Positions 58,001 to 61,000 of a stretch of DNA of 64,000 bases are shown piece by piece. The DNA comes from Escherichia coli (GTDB lineage: Bacteria > Pseudomonadota > Gammaproteobacteria > Enterobacterales > Enterobacteriaceae): the NCBI RefSeq assembly GCF_045037415.1, contig NZ_CP173438.1. One strand, 5' to 3'. Position numbers: made by a program. Each line of letters starts with the position of its first letter. Within the stretch, counting starts at the first letter, position 1.

Positions 58001-61000
58001 TCCGACGTGACGGTTAATGGCAATCTGACCAATACGTCCGGTGCTGTCAGTCTGCAAAATGGCATCGCTGGCGACACGCTGACGGTAAATGGTGATTATA
58101 CCGGCGGCGGTACGCTACTGCTCGACAGCGAATTAAACGGCGATGACTCGGCAAGCGACCAGTTGGTGTTGAACGGTAATACTGCTGGCAATACCACGGT
58201 TGTGATTAATCCCATTACAGGGATTGGTGAGCCGACATCTACAGGTATTAAAGTGGTTGATTTCGCAGCTGATCCCACGCAGTTTCAAAACAATGCGCAG
58301 TTCAGTCTGGCAGGAAGCGGCTACGTCAATATGGGGGCGTATGACTACACGCTGGTGGAAGATAACAACGACTGGTATCTGCGATCACAAGAAGTCAATC
58401 CGACGCCGCCGCCTGATCCAGACCCGACTCCAGATCCTGATCCCACGCCGGATCCCGACCCAACCCCCGACCCTGAACCTACGCCTGCTTACCAGCCGGT
58501 GTTGAATGCCAAAGTTGGTGGATATTTTAATAACCTACGTGCGGCAAATCAGGCATTTGTGATGGAGCGACGCGATCACGCAGGTGGCGATGGTCAGACG
58601 CTGAATTTACGCGTTATCGGCGGGCGTTATCATTACACGGCGGCAGGGCAGTTGGCTCAGCATGAAGACACTTCTACGGTGCAGCTTAGCGGCAACCTGT
58701 TTAGCGGGCACTGGGGTGATGATGGCGAGTGGATGCTTGGGATTGTTGGTGGCTACAGCGATAACCAGGGCGACAGCCGCTCGAATATGACCGGAACTCG
58801 CGCCGATAACCAGAACCGCGGTTATGCCGTTGGGCTGACCTCAAGCTGGTATCAGCACGGTAATCAGAAGCAGGGGGCCTGGTTGGATAGCTGGCTGCAA
58901 TATGCGTGGTTTAACAATGATGTTTCCGAACAAGACGATGGAGTGGATCATTACCACTCGTCGGGGATTATCGCCTCGCTGGAAGCCGGTTATCAGTGGT
59001 TACCGGGGCGTGGTGTGGTGATTGAACCGCAGGCGCAGGTGATTTATCAGGGCGTGCAGCAGGATGATTTTACCGCCGCTAACCATGCGCGCGTGTCACA
59101 ATCGCAGGGTGATGATATTCAGATGCGGTTGGGTTTACACAGCGAATGGCGTACTGCTGTTGGTGTCACGCCAACGTTAGATCTGAATTATTATCACGAT
59201 CCCCATGCGACGGAAATTGAAGAGGATGGCAGCACTATCAGTGACGATGCGGTGAAGCAACGGGGTGAAATAAAAGTGGGAATAACGGGCAATATCAGTC
59301 AGCGAGTTTCGCTGCGCGGCAGCGTGGCGTGGCAGAAAGGGAGTGATGATTTTGCCCAGATGGCAGGGTTTTTGTCGATGACAGTGAAATGGTAATCGCT
59401 GTCTGACCGGCACTGTTGCCGGATGCGGCGTAAACGCCTTATCTGGCCTACGGGGAGCATTTGTAGGCCTGATAAGACGCGGCAAGCGTCGCATCAGGCT
59501 TGGCGCGGTTGCCGGATGAATCCAAACAACAACCTCACTTATTCTGCGTATGCAGCATATAGTTCACATCCACGCCGGGGCCGAGCTTAAAGGTGTTAGT
59601 GATAGGGTTGTAATGCAGCCCGGTCATATGCCGTTCTTTAAGACTGGTCTGATCCACCCAGCCCAGCAATTCTGCCGGTTTAATAAACTTCTTCACATCA
59701 TGTGTACCTTTAGGCACCATGCGCAAAATATATTCAGCACCAACCACCGCCATCAGCCATGACTTGCCGTTGCGGTTAAGCGTCGAGAAAAAGACATCGC
59801 CGCCCGGTTTCACCAGTTGCGCACAGGCTCTGACCACTGACTGAGGATCGGGGACGTGCTCCAGCATCTCCATACAGGTCACCACGTCATACTGTCCGGC
59901 ATGTTTTGCCGCGTGCTCTTCCACGGTTTCCTGCACGTAATCCACCTGAATGCCGCTTTCCAGTGCGTGCAGTTTTGCCACCTGCAATGGCTCAAAGCCC
60001 ATATCCAGACCGGTCACCGTCGCGCCCTCCCGCGCCATACTCTCGGCCAGAATGCCGCCGCCACAACCGACATCGAGCACCTTTTTGCCAAATAAACCGC
60101 CAGCACGCTCGGCAATATAGCCCAGACGCAGCGGGTTAATGCGGTGCAGCGGTTTGAACTCACCTTCAAGATCCCACCAGCGGGAGGCGACGGCTTCAAA
60201 TTTAGCGATCTCTTCGTGGTCTACGTTGTGGTTTACCGGCGATTTTTCGGCATTCATTGGCACTTCTACTCCGTAATTGGCAAGACAAACGAGTATATCA
60301 GGCATTGGATGTGAATAAAGCGTATAGGTTTACCTCAAACTGCGCGGCTGTGTTATAATTTGCGACCTTTGAATCCGGGATACAGTAGAGGGATAGCGGT
60401 TAGATGAGCGACCTTGCGAGAGAAATTACACCGGTCAACATTGAGGAAGAGCTGAAGAGCTCCTATCTGGATTATGCGATGTCGGTCATTGTTGGCCGTG
60501 CGCTGCCAGATGTCCGAGATGGCCTGAAGCCGGTACACCGTCGCGTACTTTACGCCATGAACGTACTAGGCAATGACTGGAACAAAGCCTATAAAAAATC
60601 TGCCCGTGTCGTTGGTGACGTAATCGGTAAATACCATCCCCATGGTGACTTGGCGGTTTATAACACGATCGTCCGTATGGCGCAGCCATTCTCGCTGCGT
60701 TACATGCTGGTAGACGGTCAGGGTAACTTCGGTTCCATCGACGGCGACTCTGCGGCGGCAATGCGTTATACGGAAATCCGTCTGGCGAAAATTGCCCATG
60801 AACTGATGGCCGATCTCGAAAAAGAGACGGTCGATTTCGTTGATAACTATGACGGCACGGAAAAAATTCCGGACGTCATGCCAACCAAAATTCCTAACCT
60901 GCTGGTGAACGGTTCTTCCGGTATCGCCGTAGGTATGGCAACCAACATTCCGCCGCACAACCTGACGGAAGTCATCAACGGTTGTCTGGCGTATATCGAT

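Follow-up and report, generated by a model that had tools for sequence, protein, structure and literature searches.

What is the proline-packed, repetitive stretch in the C-terminal part of the autotransporter gene yfaL, and why does its length differ between strains? We examined this question in a 64,000-nucleotide (nt) stretch of the Escherichia coli contig NZ_CP173438.1 (hereafter the window), for which an earlier reading of the DNA (the original prediction) had proposed a Pro/Thr/Asp-rich repeat linker within YfaL. The tract, PTPPPDPDPTPDPDPTPDPDPTPDPEPTP, spans 29 residues, and it is very probably the proline-rich junction linker of YfaL/EhaC: a non-folding acidic spacer that would lead from the autochaperone end of the β-helical passenger to the helix plugging the 12-stranded barrel. 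The gene is known, and junction linkers of this ordinary kind have been described in autotransporters before.

The assignment to yfaL, as originally predicted, is secure. The NCBIfam equivalog model for YfaL/EhaC, NF007285, scored 2726 bits (cutoff 1459) and aligned over its full length (amino acids (aa) 3-1254 of the open reading frame (ORF) against profile positions 1-1250 of 1250), and a 1-kb region matched, at 100% identity, a gene of E. coli sequence type 131 (ST131)-type strains that RefSeq annotates as yfaL. In RefSeq genomes carrying 100%-identical and related alleles, nrdA, ubiG and gyrA flank the gene, in agreement with a position between nrdA and ubiG-gyrA. The linker peptide quoted in the original prediction was found exactly, at aa 924-952; its span, 58401-58485, marked the right site, with one base clipped at each end relative to the codon-exact 58400-58486. 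The features on which the argument rests are the following:

55631..59395, plus strand: yfaL/ehaC coding sequence, 1254 codons, an AIDA-I-family type Va autotransporter adhesin (ORF list, NF007285 and the RefSeq annotation of an identical allele)
58022..58354, plus strand: autochaperone domain AC_1 (PF18883), aa 798-908 (Pfam, 2.6e-18)
58400..58486, plus strand: Pro/Asp/Thr tract, aa 924-952 if numbered from the ATG at 55631 and aa 922-950 if numbered from 55637, where RefSeq starts the gene
58412..58483, plus strand: four 18-nt coding units with scrambled synonymous codons, starting at 58412, 58430, 58448 and 58466 (Tandem Repeats Finder, degenerate pattern and lag-18 identity)
58454..58473, plus strand: a pair of CCCGACCC copies whose starts (58454 and 58466) are offset by 12 nt, flanking the 12-nt deletion of a 35-aa allele, L009
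58508..58552, plus strand: predicted pore-spanning α-helix, aa 960-974 (AlphaFold2, query residues 171-185, predicted local distance difference test (pLDDT) >90), aligning to the helix region of AIDA-I (4MEE)
58607..59326, plus strand: autotransporter β-barrel domain (PF03797), aa 993-1232 (Pfam, 1.3e-32; Foldseek match to 4MEE with a template modelling (TM) score of 0.92)

Domain matches and structure prediction agree on where the tract lies. The passenger carries Pfam PATR and Pmp repeats, the autochaperone region matched the IcsA structures 3ML3 and 5KE1, and a TIGR01414 match (7.9e-111) supported the C-terminal barrel of a type Va autotransporter. An AlphaFold2 model of the C-terminal 465 residues, computed with 67 diverse homologues as alignment, reached a pLDDT of 93.3 and a predicted TM score of 0.89; in it, autochaperone strands run through WYLRS (aa 914-918, reaching query residue 129) and are followed by coil (aa 919-959), the helix (aa 960-974) and then the barrel. 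The last autochaperone β-strand, with its conserved WYL (aa 915-917), ends beyond the AC_1 hit, at nt 58381. Over the tract, pLDDT falls to 70-75 between domains that exceed 90, and DSSP assigns coil. The predicted location between passenger and β-barrel is thus borne out: the tract (aa 924-952) occupies the modeled coil between AC_1 and the β-domain. Foldseek superposed the barrel onto the AIDA-I transport unit (4MEE) with a root-mean-square deviation of 1.9 Å, and this closest solved structure aligns with YfaL on both sides of the tract, at the autochaperone end and at the barrel. In AIDA-I, however, the junction is bridged by ~11 residues and lacks a proline-rich insert, whereas YfaL uses ~40, so that the tract is an insertion exactly at the autochaperone/α-helix junction. 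YfaL accordingly has the 12-stranded barrel, the pore helix and the autochaperone domain at the C-terminal end of the passenger that characterize a type Va, AIDA-I-type autotransporter, and the tract has the location, proline enrichment and lack of regular secondary structure of an autotransporter proline-rich junction linker.

The tract also stands apart from the rest of the protein in composition. Sixteen of the 31 prolines of YfaL fall within its 29 residues (55%, compared with 1.2% in the remaining protein), while no 29-aa window held more than 7 prolines over 20,000 shuffles of the protein. Its layout is PTPP, three PDPDPT units, PDPEPT and a final P, with a net charge of -8. At the DNA level, three head-to-tail matches to the degenerate unit CCNGAYCCNGAYCCNAC start at 58412, 58430 and 58448, the rest of the window has none, and 100 shuffles gave an expectation of 0; the fourth unit, 58466-58483, carries GAA instead of GAY. 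Proline is encoded by each of its four codons in turn (CCG 5, CCT 5, CCA 3, CCC 3).

Tandem Repeats Finder reported periods of 18 nt (2.9 copies, 73% matches) and 36 nt (2.1 copies, 80% matches), whereas a direct-repeat family search of 58350-58550 with a 6-nt seed returned none, so that the repeat is visible only to Tandem Repeats Finder and the degenerate pattern. The DNA self-identity of the tract at a lag of 18 nt is 0.67, compared with 0.72 +/- 0.03 for random synonymous recoding of the same peptide, and 98% of random recodings equal or exceed the real tract in self-similarity. Because self-identity does not rise above that of random recoding, the DNA periodicity derives wholly from the peptide repeat and carries no trace of recent duplication. 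The description of the tract as short imperfect DNA repeats is hence trivially true, but the repeat exists at the level of the peptide and is not duplicated DNA. Selection appears to act on the peptide, not on the DNA repeat.

We asked how widely this arrangement is shared. With the C-terminal module as query, an exhaustive HMMER search returned 3,694 relatives, of which 148 of the best 150 representatives (<50% mutual identity) were aligned. WYL is near-invariant in these 148 homologues, and the segment from WYL to [YVLI]RP has a median length of 38 aa with a range of 18-114. Proline makes up on average 30% of this segment, compared with 1.1% of the remaining module; 114 of the 148 segments contain at least 25% proline and 57 contain at least four consecutive P-x dipeptides, and the residues alternating with proline are chiefly D (21%), T (21%) and E (17%). 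Near-identical PDPDPTPDP strings recur in several homologues, and the consensus of a 68-sequence alignment at the junction reads PxPxPxPxxxPxPxPxPxPxP. A P-x-P-x junction linker is therefore a general compositional hallmark of AIDA-type autotransporters, one in which composition is kept and sequence and length are not. Matches to two other families were set aside: the weak Trypan_PARP match in Pfam (E = 0.0067; 16.9 bits, cutoff 100) is compositional only, and hits to Internalin K in NCBIfam and the PDB are likewise compositional and far under the family thresholds.

Several described proteins carry comparable segments. In the self-associating autotransporter TibA of enterotoxigenic E. coli, an "additional proline-rich domain" (residues 627-677) separates the junction region from the membrane domain, so that in TibA as in YfaL a proline-rich segment lies between a junction/autochaperone region and the helix and barrel of a type Va autotransporter (PMC3835316). 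TibA differs in being a self-associating adhesin/invasin with a glycosylated passenger and a ~50-aa segment, and the likeness noted here is one of position. For Aat (Atu5364) of Agrobacterium tumefaciens, the proline-rich linker was proposed to stay unfolded and to extend the reach of the passenger, and display scaffolds built on Aat keep it (bioRxiv 10.1101/2022.02.15.480547). The YfaL tract has likewise been kept in YfaL-T, a functional display scaffold whose 465-aa anchor (mature residues 786-1250) includes the linker (PMC13101318). Aat, in contrast, is an alphaproteobacterial protein, and the function of its linker is likewise only proposed. In pertactin of Bordetella, the proline-rich repeats R1 and R2 differ in copy number between alleles (PMC8931430), and pertactin thus resembles YfaL in having proline-rich repeats of allele-dependent copy number in an autotransporter; unlike the YfaL tract, R1 and R2 are loops of the β-helix and lie away from the autochaperone/α-helix junction, are built from other repeat units and are tied to vaccine-era antigenic polymorphism. 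An autotransporter classification review does not mention proline-rich regions. Beyond autotransporters, the EP/KP region of TonB and the EP/DP repeats of trypanosome procyclin are extended rods of alternating acidic residues and proline that span a defined distance; these rigid X-Pro spacers have composition in common with the YfaL tract, without homology.

Taken with the family comparison, the composition of the tract suggests how it may work, most likely as an extended, acidic, non-folding stalk that tolerates change in length. Judged from composition and from the known properties of X-Pro repeats, the alternating prolines would block helix and sheet and favor a fairly stiff rod of extended, polyproline-II-like form. 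At 3.1 Å per residue, the 29 residues would extend for a calculated ~9 nm, and the alleles together would cover a range of about 5-10 nm (5.3-9.6). The eight acidic side chains would keep the tract solvated and off the anionic lipopolysaccharide (LPS), and the tract would serve as a stalk that keeps the folded adhesin passenger at a distance from the LPS and from the mouth of the barrel; in addition, it probably supplies an unfoldable stretch while the C-terminal hairpin starts passenger translocation. If function is set by composition and not by exact sequence or length, selection would maintain P-x alternation while synonymous sites drift. Occasional in-frame deletions or duplications between microhomologies of 8-11 nt would then be tolerated and become lineage markers, and intragenic recombination would reshuffle the length alleles.

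Several points weigh against this account. The polyproline-II geometry rests on composition, and we infer the conformation, the reach and the role in secretion. The near-neutrality of length variants is an assumption. The drop in pLDDT to 70-75 is moderate, so that full disorder of the tract is not what the model predicts. Finally, a scan of nonsynonymous to synonymous substitution rates lists yfaL with the E. coli genes under strongest positive selection (PMC9110714), which leaves room for adaptive change in length or sequence. The same paper bears on a side observation, namely that an indel-rich linker combined with intragenic mosaicism could inflate signals of positive selection in yfaL.

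Two features at the head of the tract concern translation and local polymorphism. A PPP motif (aa 926-928, 58406-58414) followed by D forms a classic stalling context dependent on elongation factor P (EF-P), and an EF-P-dependent translational pause there is possible, judging from the motif. The motif is polymorphic: K-12-type alleles have PPSPP at this place, and L009 has PP. Two substitutions were also seen: the allele of O157:H7 strain FRIK2533 (L007) carries CCG->CAG (P->Q) in the tract, breaking the P-x alternation, and allele L008 has a P->H change close to the tract head.

The original prediction had further held that linkers of this kind commonly vary in length between strains, and comparison across yfaL alleles confirmed this for YfaL. 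We searched complete E. coli genomes and matched yfaL in 5,419 of 5,426; seven genomes had no yfaL match, and one match sits on a plasmid record. The tract sequence was read directly in 11 alleles, with length defined as the number of amino acids between the fixed anchors LRSQ and AYQP. Class frequencies are estimates from span differences and identity bands, drawn from two systematic spread samples (39 genomes with a 1001-nt query and 60 genomes with a 220-nt query, each compared in span with the window) together with allele counts. The latter used ~200 nt of tract and flanks as query at at least 99% identity, a level at which no indel can hide, and total ~3,270 genomes, the rest being single-nucleotide variants of these alleles. 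Seven length classes emerged, every difference being a multiple of 3 nt and confined to the tract; each class is present in at least about 9 independent genomes, and the largest in about 2,500 complete genomes:

40 aa, span 0 nt (26/39 and 38/60 genomes): window, K-12 and O157:H7 (the last with P->Q); window type in 565 complete genomes (at least 99% identity over 220 nt), K-12 type in 1,944
34 aa, span -18 nt (9/39 and 13/60): L004 and L008; 494 genomes
42 aa, span +6 nt (2/39 and 5/60): L002; 55 genomes
32 aa, span -24 nt (1/39 and 2/60): L005; 169 genomes
36 aa, span -12 nt (1/39 and 0/60): L003, with the same allele in enteroaggregative E. coli 042; 26 genomes
35 aa, span -15 nt (0/39 and 1/60): L009; 9 genomes
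28 aa, span -36 nt (0/39 and 1/60): L010 (tract at record positions 2539-2622; Shiga toxin-producing E. coli (STEC) and bovine strains); about 9 genomes

The length found in the window is thus that of about two-thirds of genomes (~65%), with 34 aa in ~22% and 42 aa in 5-8% across the two samples. That this census relies on span differences and identity bands, with tract sequence read in 11 alleles, is a further consideration to be set against the stalk account.

Two of the deletions could be traced to end-points on short direct repeats. Relative to the window allele, L009 lacks the 12 nt between the CCCGACCC copies at 58454 and 58466 and has also lost one CCG of a CCG-CCG pair; in L003 the deletion is of 18 nt and falls between two copies of GATCCTGATCC present in the K-12-type allele. 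The downstream 400-nt flanks of L002, L003 and L005 are near-identical (4-8 mismatches), yet these alleles measure 42, 36 and 32 aa. The flanks of L003 are mosaic, K-12-like over the upstream 400 nt (3 mismatches) and L005-like over the downstream 400 nt (4 mismatches), which implies that recombination within the gene had a breakpoint in or close to the tract. The flanks of the 28-aa allele are 99-99.5% identical to those of genomes with a 40-aa tract (H130 and H132), and this similarity suggests that one lineage lost the segment recently, in a single deletion. Flank distances of L006, L008 and L010 were disregarded, as a frameshift, an insertion sequence (IS) and an indel in those flanks broke the ungapped comparison. 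Overall, the flank comparison points to recurrent indel events combined with mosaicism.

The tempo of these changes is slow. In both samples, span was constant inside every identity class: all 13 records at 80.7-82.2% identity showed -18 nt, and all 22 records at least 96% identical to the window, as well as all sampled K-12 and O157 records, showed a span of 0. Tract length is a slow, stable, lineage-level polymorphism and not the product of hypermutation. The gene itself is inactive in some strains, as L006 (A42) is a frameshifted pseudogene with an intact tract and an IS1A insertion splits the passenger in L008 (C6).

We then considered what else might explain a tract of this kind. The alternative that survives best, although it is improbable, is that tract length is selected so that the passenger clears the O-antigen, capsule or other surface layers of each strain. 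The occurrence of discrete classes at appreciable frequency, the calculated difference in reach of up to ~4 nm between alleles, the report of positive selection on yfaL and the finding of one length on different backgrounds and of different lengths on similar backgrounds would all fit such tuning. Against it, strains with surfaces as unlike as those of K-12 (rough LPS), O157:H7 and O25b:H4 ST131 share the 40-aa length, and family lengths of 18-114 aa reveal no obvious optimum. A broader form of this idea, in which the 28-42-aa alleles are adaptive, microhomology-mediated indels and recombination supply the variation and the junction linker acts as a general "height adjuster" of adhesins, strikes us as slightly less probable still.

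A more doubtful alternative is that the tract itself is an adhesive or host-interaction motif, binding for example SH3/WW-type domains or matrix proteins. Proline-rich regions of other autotransporters, such as the Chlamydia Pmps, have been proposed to bind host proteins (PMC11166332), and topology predicts that the YfaL tract would be surface exposed. A specific motif, however, would not be expected to behave as this one does: the 148 homologues keep its composition but poorly keep its sequence and length, the tract is uniformly acidic and has neither basic residues nor PxxP signatures with Arg or Lys, and variants are tolerated that replace P with Q (O157) or lose up to 12 residues.

Strain-to-strain differences in length, and deletions bounded by short direct repeats, could also suggest a hypermutable contingency locus in which slippage at a DNA repeat confers phase or antigenic variation on YfaL. 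This reading is largely refuted, and we regard it as very improbable. All 11 alleles are in frame, synonymous positions are fully scrambled, and no exact direct repeat in 58380-58500 exceeds 8 nt (11 nt in the allele of K-12 type). One span was found per identity class in both systematic samples, and the yfaL pseudogenes arose by a frameshift elsewhere and by an IS1 insertion, not through the tract. The hallmarks of a contingency locus were absent on every count, with no long perfect or near-perfect DNA repeats, no frameshift among the 11 alleles and no change of length within a class in the 39 and 60 genomes sampled. The least credible alternative, a collapsed or expanded repeat in the window or in some public genomes, as the original prediction had cautioned for short-read assemblies, has no finding in its favor and fails because the 87-nt tract is shorter than a single read and has no exact repeat above 8 nt, far under assembly k-mers, and because the classes recur across independent assemblies, with the window allele in 565 complete genomes and the rarer classes in 9-494 genomes from different laboratories.

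Around the tract, the gene and its neighborhood offer some further observations. The RefSeq start of the identical ST131 allele corresponds to window position 55637 (MRII..., 1252 aa), two codons 3′ of the first ATG of the ORF at 55631 (MNMRII...), and the NF007285 alignment likewise begins at residue 3, matching the RefSeq start. The N-terminus, MRIISLRKEYLSLLPSMIASLFSANGAAA, looks like a Sec signal peptide, judged by its residues; that of K-12 YfaL is given as 28 aa (PMC13101318). Two short alternative-frame ORFs overlap the tract, one of 93 aa with a TTG start (58224-58505, plus strand) and one of 33 aa with a GTG start (58345-58446, minus strand), and both were discounted as genes, the yfaL frame being fixed at 2726 bits. 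Neighboring ORFs lie at 52670-54955 (minus strand), 59535-60305 (minus strand) and 60404-63031 (plus strand). In ST131 strain SK1144, an IS3-like element, IS1397, sits between yfaL and ubiG (L011, positions 5569-6917), whereas the corresponding gap in the window is only 139 nt (59396-59534); since the gap lacks IS1397, the window comes from a strain other than SK1144 that carries the same yfaL allele.

Together, these results establish the low-complexity stretch of yfaL as genuine coding sequence, which matters little beyond annotation hygiene. Selection scans of yfaL by alignment should mask the indel-rich tract, and the tract is usable as a small typing marker. Those who use YfaL-T for surface display carry a natural spacer of a calculated ~9 nm, evidently tolerant of changes in length, which would be useful for tuning distance from the cell surface.

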